Shown here: positions 2,264 through 28,664 of the stretch, in pieces
Position numbering within the stretch: position 1 is the first letter of the stretch
How the letters are laid out: every line of letters starts with the position of its first letter
Assembly (NCBI GenBank): GCA_042850255.1
Contig: AP031373.1
Span: forward strand, 330,001 to 362,000
From: Nanobdellota archaeon
Lineage (GTDB): Archaea > Nanobdellota > Nanobdellia > Nanobdellales > Nanobdellaceae
DNA length: 32,000 nt
Direction: 5' to 3'
Notes under the pieces: model-generated
The model's input: only the letters and a program-made list of their open reading frames with translations
Databases searched by the model: none
Told to the model about the DNA's origin: nothing
Position numbers and translations under genes: made by a program

Positions 2264-3607
2264 ATGGATAGTGAAACTTCTAATAAAATCTTGCACTATA
2301 TAATTAACATGGAAGATGTAATAGGAGGTATAGTAAAAGAATATTTGGAAATGAAAAAAGATATATTTAAAAGAGAATTGGAATTAGAACCTATAGAAAA
2401 TAAATCTATAAGTATTATAGGACCCAGAAGATCTGGTAAAACATATTTATTATTGTATTATTTCCAAAAATATAGAGAAGAAGGAAAAAATGTAATATTT
2501 TTCTCATTTGATGATGATAGAATATATCCTCCATCTTTAGAAACATTCCAAACATTAATTAGAGTATCAAAAAATATATATACAGAAGGTAAAATTTATT
2601 ATTTTTTAGATGAAATTCAAGAAGTAGAAAATTGGGAATTGGGGGTAAAAAGATTAATAGAAAAAGAAGATTCTTATGTATTTATTACAGGTTCTTCTTC
2701 TAAGTTATTATCAAAAGAAATTGCTACACAATTAAGGGGTAGAACTATTACATATGAATTATTTCCATTTTCATTTAAGGAAGTTATACAATTTGAAGGA
2801 ATAAAAATAGATAAATATTTTACTGAAAGAGAATTAGAAAAAATAAAGAGAATATTAAAAGAAATATTATTTATAGGATCATTTCCAGAAGTTATAGTAA
2901 ATAAAGATAAATATGAAGAAATATTAAAAGAATATTATAATGTAATGTTATTTAGAGATATAATAGAAAGATGGGGAATTAAAAATATAAAAGCATTAAA
3001 ATTATTTTTGAAATTGGTTATAAATAACTTTTCAAATAAATTTTCTATAAATAGAATAGAAAAATATATGCAAAATCTGGGAATAAAAATAAGTAGAAAT
3101 ACATTATATAACTATTTAGAATATTTATCAGATGCTTATATAGTATTTTATTTAAAAAAATTTAGTTATTCTTTAAGAGAAATTGAACAAAGTATACCAA
3201 AAATATATCCTATTGATAATGGATTAATAAATGTATCTTCATATTCTTTATCAGAAAATATAGGTAGGTTAATGGAAAATTTTGTATTTTTATCATTAAG
3301 AAGAAAATATAAAGAAAATGAAAATATATTTTATTTTGAAAATAATAATTATGAAATAGATTTTTTAATAAAAGAAGGTAATAGAATAACTAAATTAATT
3401 AATGTTAGTTATGTTAATAATTTTGATGAAATAGATAAAAGGGAAATAAGATCATTAATTCATTCTTATGATTTGTTTAAAGAACATAATCCCGAATTAA
3501 TAATTATTACCTGGGATTATGAAGATGAAAAAGAAATTTCATGGTTTAATAAAAAAGGTAGAATTAAATTTATACCTTTATATAAATGGTTATTAAATAG
3601 TAAATAA
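2264..3607 (+). CDS. AAA+ ATPase, AAA_14/DUF4143 (COG1373-like) family, full length
   Basis: Walker A GPRRSGKTYLL and Walker B YFLDEIQEV are present, as is the conserved GSSSKLLSKEIATQLRGR segment. The C-terminal region is typical of DUF4143-type ATPases (YEIDFLI...). It is a paralog of 1..1187. Confidence 0.85.
   Translation: MDSETSNKILHYIINMEDVIGGIVKEYLEMKKDIFKRELELEPIENKSISIIGPRRSGKTYLLLYYFQKYREEGKNVIFFSFDDDRIYPPSLETFQTLIRVSKNIYTEGKIYYFLDEIQEVENWELGVKRLIEKEDSYVFITGSSSKLLSKEIATQLRGRTITYELFPFSFKEVIQFEGIKIDKYFTERELEKIKRILKEILFIGSFPEVIVNKDKYEEILKEYYNVMLFRDIIERWGIKNIKALKLFLKLVINNFSNKFSINRIEKYMQNLGIKISRNTLYNYLEYLSDAYIVFYLKKFSYSLREIEQSIPKIYPIDNGLINVSSYSLSENIGRLMENFVFLSLRRKYKENENIFYFENNNYEIDFLIKEGNRITKLINVSYVNNFDEIDKREIRSLIHSYDLFKEHNPELIIITWDYEDEKEISWFNKKGRIKFIPLYKWLLNSK
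3351..3607 (+). repeat. Conserved 3' block of ATPase paralog 2, near-identical to 931..1187
   Basis: See 931..1187. A second short block, 2685..2743 versus 271..329, has 2 mismatches in 59 nt at a different offset (2414). Confidence 0.9.
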
Positions 3608-20520: not shown

Positions 20521-21381
20521 GTGAATGAAACTGATAAAACCTATAGAAGTATTATCAACATTAAGAGAGAATTAATTAAGCTTGGGGAAGAAAAAGAACA
20601 TTTATATTCTAGAAAGAAAGTTTTATATAATGAAAGGAAGCAATTGTTACAACAATTAAGGGAATTAAGGAAAAAGAAAGAAGAATATAGTAAAATTTTG
20701 GATAATTTGATGGAAGAAAGACAAAAGACATTGGAAAAGTTGGAAGAGTTAAAAAAGAAATTGGAAGAGATAAAACAAAAGAGAAAAGATGTTTTTAAGA
20801 ATAAAGATGTTGTAAAAGATATAAATAAATATAAAAAAGAATTGGAAACATTGGAATATGTTTTACAAACGGAAATATTATCATATTCACAAGAAAAAAA
20901 GATATGGAATAGAATAAAATATTTAAGGAAATTATTGGGAAAATATGAAGAAATTTCAACTGTTTTGGAAGAAATAGATAAATTAAGACAAGAATATAAT
21001 GCTTATAGATCTAAATTATCAATTATTGGACAAAATATTAGAAAAAATATTGATGAAAGAAAAGTTGTAAAAGAGCAAATAAAGAATATTAAAGAAAGAT
21101 TAACTTCTATTGTAAATGAATATAACACTATAAAACAACAAATAACTGAAATAAAAGAAAAAATAAAAACATTAGAAGATAAATTAAAGGATGAATTAGA
21201 AAAATATGTAAATCAATTATCACAAAAACAACCTATGGAAATATCTAGTGAAGAGAAGAATAAAATTATAGAAGAATATTCTAAGATACAAGAAAAAATT
21301 GTTAATGGAGGGGAATTATCTATGGACGATATTTTGGTTATGCAAAAATATGAATTATTAAAGAAGAAGGGTGCAATCTGA
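20521..21381 (+). CDS. Coiled-coil protein (archaeal COG1340-like), apparent GTG start
   Basis: A 286 aa protein, Lys/Glu/Leu-rich with a heptad-like character throughout. It starts at GTG 20521 with no in-frame ATG nearby. Its 3' end overlaps the alaS start by 11 nt. Confidence 0.55.
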   Translation: MNETDKTYRSIINIKRELIKLGEEKEHLYSRKKVLYNERKQLLQQLRELRKKKEEYSKILDNLMEERQKTLEKLEELKKKLEEIKQKRKDVFKNKDVVKDINKYKKELETLEYVLQTEILSYSQEKKIWNRIKYLRKLLGKYEEISTVLEEIDKLRQEYNAYRSKLSIIGQNIRKNIDERKVVKEQIKNIKERLTSIVNEYNTIKQQITEIKEKIKTLEDKLKDELEKYVNQLSQKQPMEISSEEKNKIIEEYSKIQEKIVNGGELSMDDILVMQKYELLKKKGAI

Positions 21382-23980
21382 TCTAGAAAAATTATATCCT
21401 ATAAAAGCATTACAATCATTAAATCTAGTTAGAAAAAAATGTAAAATATGTGGTAGATATTTTTGGACATTTGATAAAAATAGAGAGGTTTGTGGTGATC
21501 ATGAAAAATACGGATTTATAAAAAATCCAATAGGAAAAAAATTATCCTATAGAGAAGTTTGGAAAAGTATAGAAAAATATTTTAGTTCTAAAGGATATTT
21601 ACCTATAAATAGATATCCTGTAGTTGCTAGGTGGAGAGATGATATAGATTTTGTGATTGCATCAATTGCAGATTTTCAACCATGGGTTGTAGAAGGTTAC
21701 GTAGATCCTCCTTCTAAAAAATTAGTAGTTCCTCAATTTTGTTTAAGATTTAATGATGTTCAAAATGTAGGATTAACAGGAAGGCATTATACAGGTTTTG
21801 TTATGATTGGACAACACGCATTTGTAAAACCTGACGAATACGATATGAATAATTATTTTTTAGACTTATATTACTGGTTTGAGGAAAATAAATTTCCAAT
21901 GGAAGAATTTATATTCCATGAAGATAAATGGGAAGGTGGAGGAAATGGAGGTACTTCTATAGAATTTTTTATTAGAGGATTAGAAGTTGCTAATCAAGTA
22001 TATATGCAATATAAAATAATTAATGATCAATGGAAGGAATTGGAAAAATTAAAAGTATTAGATATGGGAATGGGGCAAGAAAGAGTTGCTTGGGTTACAA
22101 ATGGTACAAATACATCTTATGATATTGTATTTCCAAATACAATTAAATTTTTATTAAATAATTTAAAATATGAAATAGATTATAATGTTTTAGATAAAAT
22201 TTCTATGTATTCTTCATTATTTGATTTCGAAAATAATGATATAAAAGATTTTGAAGAATTTTTAAGAAAAAATAATATAGAACCTGGAAATAATGTTGAA
22301 ATAATGAGAGCGATTTATTCAATTTCCGATCATATAAGAACATTATATATCGCAATATCTGATGGTGCGCTACCTTCAAATATTGGTGGAAATTATAATT
22401 TAAGATTAATTGCTAGAAGAATGTTTTACTTTATTGATAAATATTTTAATGTAAATAATATTGATGAATTCCTAAAAGAATTATTGAATAATATATCTAA
22501 AGATTGGTATGAAGAAAAATTAAAGGAAAATATTGAAGAAATAATGGAAATATTGTTATATGAATATCAAAAATATTTGGAAGTAAAAAAGAATGCTCAA
22601 AGAATATTAAATAATATAAAAAATGTTGATACTAAAAAAATATTTGAATTATATACATCTCAAGGAATTTCTTTAGATATAATAAAAGATATAAATCCAA
22701 ATATAAATATAAATAAAGAAGAATTAGAAAAATTAATAAAAGAACATAAAGAAAAATCAAAAAAAGAAAAAGAAGAAAATAAACTGAATATTGAAGTAAA
22801 TTATCCAGAAACTTATAGGTCTTTTTATGAATCTTGGAGAAAATATTATGAAGTTGGAAAAATAATTGGAAAAGTAAATGAATATTTAGTATTTGATAAA
22901 ACGGTATTTTTCCCAACAAAAGGTGGTCAAATACATGATACTGGATATATATTTAATTTAGATGAAATAGAAAATTATTCCGAAGAAGTATTATATAAAT
23001 ATGATTTTCCAGATTATGTAAAAGAAGTATTAATTAATTATTTAAATGGTGATAAAATTGAAGGATTTGAAAATTATTTTGCAAGAGTAATAGATGTAAT
23101 AGAAGTTGGAAAAGTAATATTACATAAAGTTGATAAAAATATTAATTGGGATGGAAATATATTACAAATAGTAGATAAAGATAGAAGATATAGAATTTCT
23201 AGACATCATACTGCTACTCATATTTTAACATCTGTATTAAGGAAAATATATGGAAAACATATTTGGCAAGCTGGAGCAGAAAAAGATGAATATGAGGGAA
23301 GGTTAGATGTAACCCATTATAAAGTTCCCACATATGAAGAAATAAAATTAATAGAAAAAGAAGCAAATAAAATTATATTAGAAGGAATGCCAATATATAA
23401 ATTTTATTTAAAAAGAAATGAGGCGGAAAGTAAATATGGATTTATAATTTATCAGGGAGGATTTATACCTGAAGTAAATTTAAGGATAGTAAGAATAGGG
23501 GAAGAAAATAAAACTGTAGATGTTGAAGCATGTTCAGGTACTCATTTAGATAATACATTAGAAGTAGGATTAATAAAAATAAAGTCTGTAGAAAAAATTG
23601 CAGATGGATTAATAAGATTTAGATTTGTTGCTGGAGATAGAATAATAGAAGAATTTGAAAATATTGAAGAAAAAATAAATGAAATAAAAAATAAATATGG
23701 TATAGACATAAATAATTTATTAAATTATATTGATAAAATAAATAAGGAAAGGGAGGATAATTATAAAAAATTAAATAATTTAATAGAAGAACTTATTAAA
23801 AATAATATAAAAGATGGAAAATTAGTTGGGGAAATAAATTTAGAAATTTCAGATGTAATAAAATATGTATTAAAATATAAAAATATGGTAAATGAAATAG
23901 AATTAAAATGTAAAGATGGAATAATAAGTTCTAAGGAAGGGGAAAAGAAAGTAGATAAATTTTATATTAAAAAATCCTAA
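21371..23980 (+). CDS. alaS: Alanine--tRNA ligase, single contiguous gene, apparent GTG start
   Basis: The archaeal-type N-terminus is CKICGRYFWTF...CGD. The class II core is present. Editing-domain zinc motifs are HHTATH (HxxxH) and CSGTH (CxxxH). Confidence 0.9.
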   Translation: MQSDLEKLYPIKALQSLNLVRKKCKICGRYFWTFDKNREVCGDHEKYGFIKNPIGKKLSYREVWKSIEKYFSSKGYLPINRYPVVARWRDDIDFVIASIADFQPWVVEGYVDPPSKKLVVPQFCLRFNDVQNVGLTGRHYTGFVMIGQHAFVKPDEYDMNNYFLDLYYWFEENKFPMEEFIFHEDKWEGGGNGGTSIEFFIRGLEVANQVYMQYKIINDQWKELEKLKVLDMGMGQERVAWVTNGTNTSYDIVFPNTIKFLLNNLKYEIDYNVLDKISMYSSLFDFENNDIKDFEEFLRKNNIEPGNNVEIMRAIYSISDHIRTLYIAISDGALPSNIGGNYNLRLIARRMFYFIDKYFNVNNIDEFLKELLNNISKDWYEEKLKENIEEIMEILLYEYQKYLEVKKNAQRILNNIKNVDTKKIFELYTSQGISLDIIKDINPNININKEELEKLIKEHKEKSKKEKEENKLNIEVNYPETYRSFYESWRKYYEVGKIIGKVNEYLVFDKTVFFPTKGGQIHDTGYIFNLDEIENYSEEVLYKYDFPDYVKEVLINYLNGDKIEGFENYFARVIDVIEVGKVILHKVDKNINWDGNILQIVDKDRRYRISRHHTATHILTSVLRKIYGKHIWQAGAEKDEYEGRLDVTHYKVPTYEEIKLIEKEANKIILEGMPIYKFYLKRNEAESKYGFIIYQGGFIPEVNLRIVRIGEENKTVDVEACSGTHLDNTLEVGLIKIKSVEKIADGLIRFRFVAGDRIIEEFENIEEKINEIKNKYGIDINNLLNYIDKINKEREDNYKKLNNLIEELIKNNIKDGKLVGEINLEISDVIKYVLKYKNMVNEIELKCKDGIISSKEGEKKVDKFYIKKS

Positions 23981-26115: not shown

Positions 26116-27405
26116 CTATTCTGTAAGTGGTCCTCTTCTATACTTCTTAGATCTTTCTGAATCTATACTATTGTTTCTCATTACTAAATATCCCAATGCT
26201 CCTGCGATTGTTCCACCTATAACAGATTTATCAATATATTTACCAATATTTCCTAATGAAGATGCTGACTTATCACTATTGATACTTTTATGAGATGCTT
26301 GATAATGTGGTAATTGATTAGATTGTCCCAGTATATATTGGACAACACCAGGACCATCTCCTTGTGCAGGAGCTATTACTACCTGATTAATAGATTTATA
26401 TATGTCGTATTGTGTATAATTATTGGAATATGTGGTTACACTATATCCTAATGGTGATGTAATAGGATACACTCCATATTGCCCAGGATTTAAAATACTA
26501 GTATTTCCTAAGAAATAACCTGCTGTTTTTACTGAATTTAAAGCTGCATTTTGTAGACTTTGGCTATTGAAATTTAATACTACTGATTTTCCTGTTTGAT
26601 TTATATATTGGAATCCCCATAAACCATATGGTAATCCATATACACTATATCCTGTTGTAAATACTTCTGGTACTGTTTTATTTAAAGCATATGAAAGGAA
26701 TTTCATTACATTTTGTTGAGATCCTACTACATAGAATACCGATGCATTTGGTCCCAACTGTATTGTACTATTTCCTTGGTAGAATATGCATGAATTTGTG
26801 ATATTCTTTGTTGTAGGTATGTACATTGCCATATATATTAATTTCTCTAATGAGGAATTACTAAATATTGATTGGAATTGTCCTGTTACTGGATTAAAGA
26901 ATGTTGTAAAGTTATAATTTCCTTCTATTTTTAATGTTTTTCCATTATACAGATCTTTTGCATAAATTATTGCATCATTTCCAGCTTTAGTTACATTTAT
27001 TACCTTTAATGGTACAAGTGTAGAATTTGTTCCAAATACATATAATTCTGATTGATTTATCTGCTTTATTGGTGAAGGAGCTGTTGTGGTTGTATTGCTT
27101 GAGGTGCTTTTAGTGGTACTTGTGCTTGTTGAAGAACTAGAAGTATATGTAGTAGTTGTGGTTGAAGAACTTGTAGTGCTACTAGTAGTTGAAGTATTAT
27201 ATTTTGTTATGGTGGTTGTTGGTCCTGGTTTAACTATTGTTGTCTTTTGTATTATAGTTTGCGTTTGAGTACTTTTATGGCTAGCGCTATATAAAGCTAT
27301 TCCGGCTCCTGCAGCTACACCTGCTAGTGTTATCAAAGCTCCTAGTACTACTCCTTTAAGAGACTCTCCCTTATTTTTACCATTTCCATTATTGTTAGAG
27401 CTCAT
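26116..27405 (-). CDS. Surface protein with N-terminal and C-terminal hydrophobic helices and a Ser/Thr-rich stalk
   Basis: The N-terminus is MSSNNNGNGKNKGESLK followed by GVVLGALITLAGVAAGAGIALY. A Ser/Thr tract TTTITKYNTSTTSSTTSSSTTTTTYTSSSSTSTSTTKSTSSNTTTT maps to about nt 27082-27222. A sequon-rich domain follows. The C-terminal helix SVIGGTIAGALGYLVM is followed by a basic tail (RSKKYRRG). Confidence 0.8.
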   Translation of the reverse strand: MSSNNNGNGKNKGESLKGVVLGALITLAGVAAGAGIALYSASHKSTQTQTIIQKTTIVKPGPTTTITKYNTSTTSSTTSSSTTTTTYTSSSSTSTSTTKSTSSNTTTTAPSPIKQINQSELYVFGTNSTLVPLKVINVTKAGNDAIIYAKDLYNGKTLKIEGNYNFTTFFNPVTGQFQSIFSNSSLEKLIYMAMYIPTTKNITNSCIFYQGNSTIQLGPNASVFYVVGSQQNVMKFLSYALNKTVPEVFTTGYSVYGLPYGLWGFQYINQTGKSVVLNFNSQSLQNAALNSVKTAGYFLGNTSILNPGQYGVYPITSPLGYSVTTYSNNYTQYDIYKSINQVVIAPAQGDGPGVVQYILGQSNQLPHYQASHKSINSDKSASSLGNIGKYIDKSVIGGTIAGALGYLVMRNNSIDSERSKKYRRGPLTE

Positions 27406-27523: not shown

Positions 27524-27606
27524 GCGGCGGTGCCCGAGTGGTCAAAGGGGGTCGGTTTAGGTCCGATTGGAGAGATCCGTCGGGGGTTCGAATCCCTCCC
27601 GCCGCA
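27524..27606 (+). tRNA. tRNA-Leu, anticodon UAG; class II with long variable arm; no encoded CCA
   Basis: Hand fold: acceptor GCGGCGG/CCGCCGC, D stem CCC/GGG, anticodon stem GTCGG/CCGAT and loop TTTAGGT (U33, UAG, G37). The 14-nt variable arm contains a GGA/TCC stem. The T arm is GGGGG-TTCGAAT-CCCTC and the discriminator is A. It is a GC-rich island in AT-rich surroundings. Confidence 0.9.
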
Positions 27607-28476: not shown

Positions 28477-28505
28477 ATTATCTTATTGTTTATTGTATTT
28501 AAAAT

Positions 28506-28580
28506 TGGACCCGCGGGGATTTGAACCCCGGACCTCCCGGACCGCAACCGGGAATTCTATCCATGCTGAACTACGGGTCC
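28506..28580 (-). tRNA. tRNA-Arg, anticodon GCG; no intron; no encoded CCA
   Basis: The reverse complement folds by hand as follows. The acceptor is GGACCCG/CGGGTCC and the D arm is GTTC-AGCATGGATA-GAAT. The anticodon stem is CCCGG/CCGGG with loop TTGCGGT. The variable region is AGGTC, the T arm is CGGGG-TTCAAAT-CCCCG and the discriminator is A. Total length is 75 nt. Confidence 0.9.
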
Positions 28581-28582
28581 TT

Positions 28583-28638
28583 CTTTCAGACTCTGCTCCT
28601 TTCATCATGCATCAGAGGCACACAAGCTCATCATAAAT
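28583..28638 (-). ncRNA. C/D box sRNA (2'-O-methylation guide) with both C/D and C'/D' motifs and two 12-nt guides
   Basis: The minus strand reads AUGAUGA (C, 28628-28634), GCUUGUGUGCCU (12 nt), CUGA (D', 28612-28615) and UGC. It continues AUGAUGA (C', 28602-28608), AAGGAGCAGAGU (12 nt), CUGA (D, 28586-28589) and AAGAA. tRNA-Arg nucleotide +1 (28580) follows directly. It has canonical archaeal geometry and markedly higher G+C than the surroundings. Confidence 0.85.
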
Positions 28639-28664
28639 ATTTTTTGTATTTTAATTTATAGAAA

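Follow-up and report, generated by a model that had tools for sequence, protein, structure and literature searches.

In the 32-kb window of the Nanobdellota archaeon YN1 genome that was analysed here (the whole stretch of DNA given above), a canonical archaeal double-guide C/D box small RNA (sRNA) occupies positions 28634-28586 of the minus strand, 5 nucleotides (nt) on the 5' side of tRNA-Arg(GCG). We consider it probable that this sRNA, an orthologue of sRNA17 of Nanoarchaeum equitans, has come to be placed between the promoter of tRNA-Arg and the tRNA itself, is co-transcribed with it, and is separated from it by a cut at tRNA +1. An earlier reading made from the sequence alone had described a C/D sRNA 5 nt ahead of tRNA-Arg, lying with it in a G+C-rich island in AT-rich DNA, and guessed that the organism was a nanoarchaeote. 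The arrangement is borne out by the boxes, by ARAGORN and by an Rfam tRNA match of 60.3 bits, the island by a local G+C of 0.41-0.56 over the sRNA and tRNA against 0.24 (23.9%) for the window, and the guess was right. The parts of the unit are as follows.

28634-28628, minus strand: C box AUGAUGA (sequence reading and pattern search)
28627-28616, minus strand: D' guide GCUUGUGUGCCU, 12 nt
28615-28612, minus strand: D' box CUGA
28611-28609, minus strand: inter-box spacer UGC, 3 nt, between the D' and C' boxes
28608-28602, minus strand: C' box AUGAUGA
28601-28590, minus strand: D guide AAGGAGCAGAGU, 12 nt
28589-28586, minus strand: D box CUGA
28585-28581, minus strand: spacer AAGAA, 5 nt, from the D box to tRNA +1
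28580-28506, minus strand: tRNA-Arg(GCG), 75 nt, CCA not encoded (ARAGORN; Rfam RF00005, 60.3 bits)

From C box through D box the sRNA is 49 nt long and all four of its boxes are canonical. Archaeal C/D sRNAs were recognised by a C box RUGAUGA near the 5' end, a D box CUGA near the 3' end, internal C' and D' boxes, guides of about 12 nt and a total length of about 50-60 nt, and the boxes, guide spacing and length of 28634-28586 agree with this description. The complete pattern of boxes and spacing, with at most 2 mismatches permitted, is found at a single place in the window and in none of 100 dinucleotide-preserving shuffles of it, and a relaxed C/D regular expression applied to both strands of about 216 kb of nanoarchaeal loci matched only copies of this same sRNA; on these grounds a chance motif was rejected. 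No Rfam C/D family reached its gathering score, the best being sR12 with 25.9 bits (E=0.002) against 38, and about a dozen archaeal C/D families gave full-length matches below threshold. This is expected and is not disqualifying, because the C/D models are guide-specific and none of them was built from Nanoarchaeota.

Comparison with related genomes proved informative. A pair of genes encoding a TrmY-like protein and a protein of 160 amino acids (aa), followed by tRNA-Arg(GCG), is found in conserved order among relatives. Three closer relatives, in which the 160-aa protein is 75-82% identical to that of YN1, have the sRNA between the 160-aa open reading frame (ORF) and tRNA-Arg.

L027, JGI metagenome: sRNA intact
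L029, metagenome-assembled genome (MAG) KM4331-16: sRNA intact
L028, Logan assembly SRR25937769, 2583-2640: sRNA decaying

The spacer from D box to tRNA is 4 nt in all three, AAAU in L027 and L029 and AGAU in L028. In the alignment the D' core CUUGUGUGCC and the D' box are invariant across the four copies, which we place in clade A, and the boxes are conserved in YN1, L027 and L029, while the flanks, the inter-box spacer and the ends of the guides are variable. The copy in L028 has a C box AUAAUGA, a C' box AUGACAA and a shortened D guide, with the D' guide and the tRNA-Arg 4 nt downstream intact; a long leader would persist on this tRNA-Arg despite the decay of the sRNA. The end of the L027 contig, at 3060-3092, is a fold-back of the anticodon stem of tRNA-Arg (..cccggaccgcaaccggg..), for which misassembly, and not a genuine variant of the tRNA, is the most likely cause.

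Other relatives have no sRNA in this position. The 160-aa ORF of Nanobdella aerobiophila ends with a stop codon that falls inside tRNA-Arg, in a further relative (L004) the gap between the two is 8 nt, and in L005-L007 the stop codon of the ORF abuts tRNA-Arg; on two more clade-A contigs the 160-aa ORF is followed by a convergent gene, with neither sRNA nor tRNA. The sRNA-tRNA unit is real, inherited and restricted to one sub-lineage. Just downstream of tRNA-Arg and tRNA-Leu, N. aerobiophila (L002, 8020-10913) carries four tandem NTP_transf_2/HEPN pairs of toxin-antitoxin-like character, and no such pairs are found at the matching place in the YN1 window.

The relationship to sRNA17 is seen in both guides. 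In N. equitans sRNA17 is a C/D box sRNA with 49,200 RNA-seq reads, a D guide AAGGAGCAGGAA, a D' guide UAUUGUGUGCUU and a published target at Neq 16S-1349, CCCUmGCUCCUUGCAC (Randau 2012, Genome Biol 13:R63, Additional file 2). The YN1 D guide AAGGAGCAGAGU is identical to that of sRNA17 at 9 of 12 nt, with AAGGAGCAG in common, and the D' guides share 8 contiguous nt with the core UUGUGUGC. By the N+5 rule the target of the YN1 D guide is the same U as that of sRNA17 (CCCU/GCUCCUU, where the stroke follows the target nucleotide). With both guides homologous and one target nucleotide predicted for the two, the YN1 sRNA is the evident orthologue of sRNA17. Both are double-guide C/D sRNAs of Nanoarchaeota with near-identical D guides and a D' core in common, but the surroundings and boxes differ, as sRNA17 is flanked by the protein genes NEQ384 and NEQ386, with no tRNA adjoining, and has a D box CAGA and a C box AUGAAGA. 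A D' target for sRNA17 is absent from the PLEXY listing and would, by analogy with YN1, be the helix 28 site described below.

Potential targets were scored on the 16S rRNA of relatives, namely 15 Nanopusillaceae/Nanobdella genomes or MAGs that were retrieved with the site of the published YN1 fluorescence in situ hybridization probe; the same site also gave 3 chance bacterial matches, and the YN1 16S was not among the sequences retrieved. The YN1 16S is 86.5% identical to that of Nanobdella (PMC11420986). Positions 2-11 of the D' guide pair 10/10 at a single best site in the 16S of Nanobdella and Nanopusillus, a score that only 1-4 of every 1000 shuffled guides reach, and the D' core CUUGUGUGCC is complementary to GGCACACAAG in this rRNA. 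The site is the 5' strand of helix 28, which reads GGGCACACAAGG or GGGCAUACAAGG at every locus that extends to it. The 3' strand of the same helix reads mostly UCCCUGCCCCUU, and it is here that the D guides of L027 and L029 find their best 16S site, with 9/10 paired.

The N+5 nucleotide of the D' guide is U28620, facing an A equivalent to G933 of Escherichia coli, and that of the D guide is A28594, facing a U equivalent to C1384 (..CCCU/GCUCCUU..). The equivalence comes from a MAFFT alignment in which E. coli rRNA served for numbering only, being uninformative for exact matches. When the Rfam archaeal small-subunit consensus structure is mapped onto the Nanobdella 16S these two nucleotides, the A of GGGCA/C and the U of CCCU/GC, are paired together, and G933-C1384 we take to be the closing pair of E. 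coli 16S helix 28. By the N+5 rule, both guides would point at the two partners of one 16S base pair. The two guides are partly complementary to each other because their targets are opposite strands of one helix, with the result that a weak hairpin forms within the sRNA in the predicted precursor fold. The sequence-only reading had computed the N+5 target strings correctly and had seen that neither guide matches the two tRNAs of the window, so that tRNA targets there are rejected. The guides are nonetheless not orphans, since the D' core pairs 10/10 in the 16S of all family members examined and the D guide corresponds to the 16S target published for sRNA17.

The neighbouring pair, equivalent to 930-1387, also varies with the guides. 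The guide nucleotides that face it fit the rRNA pair in sRNA17 (U/A) and in L027 and L029 (C/G), as set out here.

N. equitans sRNA17: D' position 2 is U and D position 8 is A; U1387 is published, and A930 is suggested by the D' guide
L027 and L029: D' position 2 is C and D position 8 is G; 930-1387 is G-C in the family 16S examined, which is not their own
YN1: D' position 2 is C and D position 8 is A; this predicts G.U at 930-1387, or one mismatch

The 16S of N. equitans has U where the YN1 D guide has A at position 8, and a U at the 1387 equivalent is plausible for the YN1 16S. If our reading is correct, the YN1 16S is predicted to contain GGCACACAAG at 929-940 and C(U/C)CUGCUCCUU, in the form of CUCUGCUCCUU or CCCUGCUCCUU and not CCCUGCCCCUU, at 1380-1391. 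No match to the pattern for both targets, AGGCACACAAGC N420-450 ACTCTGCTCCTT, was found in the genome contigs searched. A metagenome scan for CTCTGCTCCTTGCACTCACCG gave two chance matches in G+C-rich bacterial contigs, neither of them rRNA, and a query made from the translation of a spurious ORF within 16S retrieved consensus-type sequences only. In MAG KM4331-16, which has the sRNA, the 16S contigs end short of both target sites. The order 16S then tgtA is conserved across the family, and the YN1 TgtA was found (P0029). It was also observed that the 16S of Nanopusillaceae (L009-L025, for example L019 5055-6543) has GCAGUCGCCACGGGAAUAC where the near-universal primer site is GCAGCCGCGGUAAUAC, and near the decoding centre has GCACUCACCG in place of GCACACACCG.

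The signals that would govern transcription of the unit were located on the minus strand as follows.

28655-28662, minus strand: putative TATA/box-A-like element TCTATAAA, at -28..-21 from the first A of the C box
28634-28637, minus strand: predicted transcription start, at the A of the C box or 1-3 nt upstream, with a T/A initiator, placed from the box-A spacing
28504-28501, minus strand: T-run TTTT, part of TTTTAAATA, probable archaeal terminator, one base past the 3' end of the tRNA

The element TCTATAAA sits just past the stop codon (28667-28665) of the 160-aa ORF. In L027, L029 and L028 a box TTTAAA begins 29, 28 and 27 nt, respectively, ahead of the C box, and the N. equitans sRNAs described as having their own promoters show a box A whose first base is 26-28 nt upstream of the 5' end seen by RNA-seq (Randau 2012 data). 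Between the sRNA and the tRNA there is no T-run terminator in the AAGAA spacer, and the interval -28..-21 from tRNA +1 is the C' box ATGATGAA, which is not TATA-like, the rest of the stretch being G+C-rich guide. The sequence-only reading was thus right that no promoter for the tRNA alone would fit here. Elsewhere in the family, tRNA genes (window 27524-27606 of the plus strand; L002, L004, L027 and L028) have TATA-like boxes about 23-33 nt before +1, which implies very short leaders of 0-5 nt, although RNase P is reported in the family. For the tRNA-Arg of L004 the box is TTTAATAT, at -30..-23, within the last codons of the 160-aa ORF. Because a TATA-like box precedes the C box and there is neither a terminator nor a credible promoter between sRNA and tRNA, the best reading is that the two are co-transcribed and that the sRNA forms a tRNA leader of about 54 nt, as had been proposed, with the tRNA then cut free at its 5' end. 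The simplest evolutionary account has the sRNA entering between tRNA-Arg and its promoter. At 28496-28504 of the minus strand TTTTAAATA doubles as a box-A-like element that starts 28 nt before the ATG (28476) of an NTP-transferase ORF downstream of tRNA-Arg, which suggests a leaderless mRNA for that ORF.

It is possible to put these elements together as a pathway. In the YN1 lineage the sRNA gene would have come between tRNA-Arg(GCG) and its promoter at the 3' end of the 160-aa gene. Transcription would begin at the C box or 1-3 nt before it, cross the sRNA and the AAGAA spacer to reach the tRNA, and end at the T-run that follows. The sRNA would then be the 5' leader, of about 54 nt, of pre-tRNA-Arg. 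One cut at tRNA +1 (28581/28580), most likely by RNase P, would produce both the mature 5' end of the tRNA and an sRNA with a short 3' tail, and this tail may be trimmed to the protected D box. Together with L7Ae, Nop5 and fibrillarin the sRNA would direct 2'-O-methylation of the A and the U equivalent to G933 and C1384; fibrillarin and NOP56 are present in N. equitans.

A precise cut at tRNA +1 is the activity of RNase P. In the minimum free energy fold of the precursor (138 nt) the acceptor, anticodon and T arms fold on their own, apart from the sRNA, the junction is unpaired, and no bulge-helix-bulge is predicted there. N. equitans lacks RNase P and transcribes all of its tRNAs leaderless, and on this basis the sequence-only reading had raised the puzzle of how the tRNA 5' end would be released. 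The premise stands, but the puzzle is weaker than was feared, since a reduced RNase P, with a short RNA and RPP21, RPP29 and RPP30, has been reported in the terrestrial relative Nst1 (PMC3655853, PMC4919917). Because it is reported in this relative, RNase P is also the likely nuclease in YN1.

Other explanations of the locus may be considered. It is possible, although we regard it as rather unlikely, that the sRNA is excised from the 3' untranslated region of the TrmY/160-aa operon mRNA, so that mRNA, sRNA and tRNA make up one long primary transcript. The 160-aa ORF does lie on the same strand, its stop codon 30 nt ahead of the start of the sRNA, and reviews say that most archaeal C/D sRNAs are without independent promoters and are co-transcribed with their neighbours. 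On the other side, the box-A-like element lies at the spacing of independently transcribed N. equitans sRNAs, and the same position is the likely tRNA-Arg promoter in relatives without the sRNA. Read-through from upstream and a promoter of the sRNA's own are not mutually exclusive, and a cut at tRNA +1 is needed under either. Such a cut would be dispensed with if tRNA-Arg were transcribed independently and leaderless from a cryptic promoter inside the sRNA, with no 5' processing, as in N. equitans. That species transcribes all its tRNAs in this way, and the position of the TATA-like boxes before other tRNA genes of the family suggests very short leaders or none; N. equitans sRNA14 also lies upstream of a tRNA-Gly, but there the 33-nt gap holds a T-run and a promoter. 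In YN1 the gap is only 5 nt, the place of a promoter is taken by the C' box and G+C-rich guide, and transcripts of the sRNA, with no T-run after the D box, must run into the tRNA. We therefore think this explanation very improbable.

The sRNA copy itself could be a non-functional or decaying relic which now serves only as a tRNA leader, the helix 28 methylation being absent or guided by another copy. This would accord with the mutated C and C' boxes and shortened D guide of L028, with two A.C mismatches between the YN1 D guide and the family 16S consensus, and with the several relatives that have no sRNA at the locus. It sits poorly, and to our minds makes the idea improbable, with the four perfect boxes of YN1 and its two guide spacers of exactly 12 nt, with a D' core that is invariant while the flanks of the copies diverge, and with a D guide that is nearer to the guide of the expressed sRNA17 than to those of L027 and L029 and fits a U1387-type 16S. 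A different question is whether another enzyme, such as a protein-only RNase P (HARP), the splicing endonuclease or a 5'-3' trimming activity, releases the tRNA 5' end. N. equitans is without RNase P, the RNase P RNA of Nst1 is unusually short and POP5 was not found there, and HARP has been suggested, as a hypothesis, to take part in the maturation of C/D sRNAs. We nevertheless hold this to be quite unlikely, as RNase P components are reported in the family, the predicted fold has no bulge-helix-bulge at the junction, and 5'-3' exonucleolytic trimming would destroy the sRNA unless it were protected by protein. There is likewise only a slim chance that YN1 has no conventional RNase P, or only a reduced one of the Nst1 type, and that the essential tRNA-Arg is freed from a protein-bound 54-nt leader by unusual means; these may include an unrecognised nuclease, a minimal RNase P acting on a ribonucleoprotein (RNP) substrate, or processing guided by the boundary of the sRNA-protein complex.

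Some points also count against the preferred reading of a co-transcribed orthologue of sRNA17 that is released at tRNA +1. The YN1 D guide pairs 8/10 at the helix 28 3' strand of relatives, with the A.C mismatches at positions 3 and 8, and this is not significant alone. A full match would be expected only if the YN1 16S has U at the equivalents of both 1382 and 1387. The promoter assignment must be regarded as weak in DNA of about 80% A+T. In addition, the decaying copy of L028 indicates that the sRNA can be dispensable at this locus.

The presence of guide and guide-less states at one locus suggests insertion of a guide gene between a tRNA promoter and its tRNA, that is, mobility by promoter capture. 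The targeting of both partners of the helix 28 closing pair, being common to the YN1 group and N. equitans, appears to represent an ancient modification pair or chaperone contact. With the guide RNA as the 5' leader of a tRNA, one cut for the sRNA 3' end and the tRNA 5' end would link RNase P, or a substitute for it, to the biogenesis of C/D sRNAs. A recent hypothesis ties protein-only RNase P to C/D sRNA maturation, and the YN1 locus would provide an actual example of an sRNA whose end is set by a cut of the RNase P type. Processing of tRNA 5' ends is in question in this lineage, with RNase P lost in N. equitans and reduced in Nst1, and the cultivated YN1 allows a direct test. If the release were by unusual means, the locus would be a natural reporter for a new route of tRNA 5' maturation in a cultivable nanoarchaeon.

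YN1 is a cultivated Nanobdellota archaeon that grows at 55-95 °C in co-culture with Sulfurisphaera ohwakuensis and has a genome (AP031373) of 23.4% G+C; two sets of reads were deposited for the co-culture, among them DRR287338 (PMC11420986). The 160-aa ORF upstream of the sRNA is identical to YN1_4040, and a copy is present in that run. The gene content of the window fits a terrestrial nanoarchaeote, with the ribosomal proteins L21e and P1, a fructose-1,6-bisphosphatase of archaeal type (FBPase_3), an unsplit alanyl-tRNA synthetase, TYW3 and the TrmY-like methyltransferase. The alanyl-tRNA synthetase (21371-23980, plus strand) is a one-piece protein of 869 aa, the enzyme being split in N. equitans and unsplit in Nst1. 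Between 6437 and 16620 there are eight consecutive ORFs (778, 344, 423, 304, 386, 301, 160 and 487 aa) without a Pfam match. YN1 is known to have a large attachment organelle, and these ORFs may, speculatively, encode lineage-specific surface proteins. At 26116-27405 of the minus strand, where local G+C is at most 0.41 and GC skew is strong, lies the gene for a protein of 429 aa that has long runs of Ser/Thr and matches nothing in Pfam, and two neighbouring paralogous AAA_14/DUF4143 ATPase genes lie at 63-1187 and 2264-3607 of the plus strand.

Linkage of tRNAs and C/D guides is already known, and the sequence-only reading had cited examples of it; that part of the comparison stands, but in those examples the guide is downstream of the tRNA or in its intron, whereas here it is upstream. 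Dicistrons of this kind in archaea comprise tRNA-Val-sRNA8 and tRNA-Gly-sRNA3 of N. equitans and units with tRNA-Ser in Ignicoccus hospitalis, tRNA-Pro in Thermoproteus tenax and tRNA-Met-sR44 in Pyrobaculum, and C/D guides within tRNA introns are also known. The archaeal dicistrons resemble the YN1 unit in that a C/D sRNA and a tRNA lie a few nt apart on one strand, and also in that, as is probable for YN1, the two share one transcript and one end of the sRNA is produced by an enzyme of tRNA processing. In the described cases the tRNA is first, and a cut by RNase Z at its 3' end has been proposed to make the sRNA 5' end. In YN1 the order is reversed, and a cut at the tRNA 5' end would make the sRNA 3' end, for which a different enzyme would be needed; compared with a dicistron of the RNase Z type, the YN1 unit does not have the tRNA-first order and shares the lack of a promoter or terminator between the genes. 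Our literature search found no description of a unit with an sRNA or small nucleolar RNA (snoRNA) upstream of a tRNA, but the key survey of Tripp et al. 2017 was outside the comparison, so that priority is not firm.

N. equitans does have a pair with the order of the YN1 unit, sRNA14 lying upstream of a tRNA-Gly on one strand. These two genes are 33 nt apart, unlike those of YN1, and have a T-run and a box-A-like TTTAAT between them, which implies two transcription units, as expected without RNase P. The dicistronic tRNA-snoRNA genes of plants (Kruszka et al. 2003) are like the YN1 unit in that a C/D guide RNA is expressed from a tRNA promoter and is then parted from the tRNA by an enzyme that processes tRNA ends. 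They differ from it in being eukaryotic, in being transcribed by Pol III and in placing the tRNA first, with the cut made by RNase Z.

The direction of processing that we propose for YN1 has its counterpart in mammals. At the MALAT1-mascRNA locus, RNase P cuts on the 5' side of a tRNA-like structure and so defines the 3' end of a functional RNA upstream. At that locus a long non-coding RNA takes the upstream place and what follows it is tRNA-like rather than a tRNA; the likeness to the YN1 unit is one of analogy, not homology.

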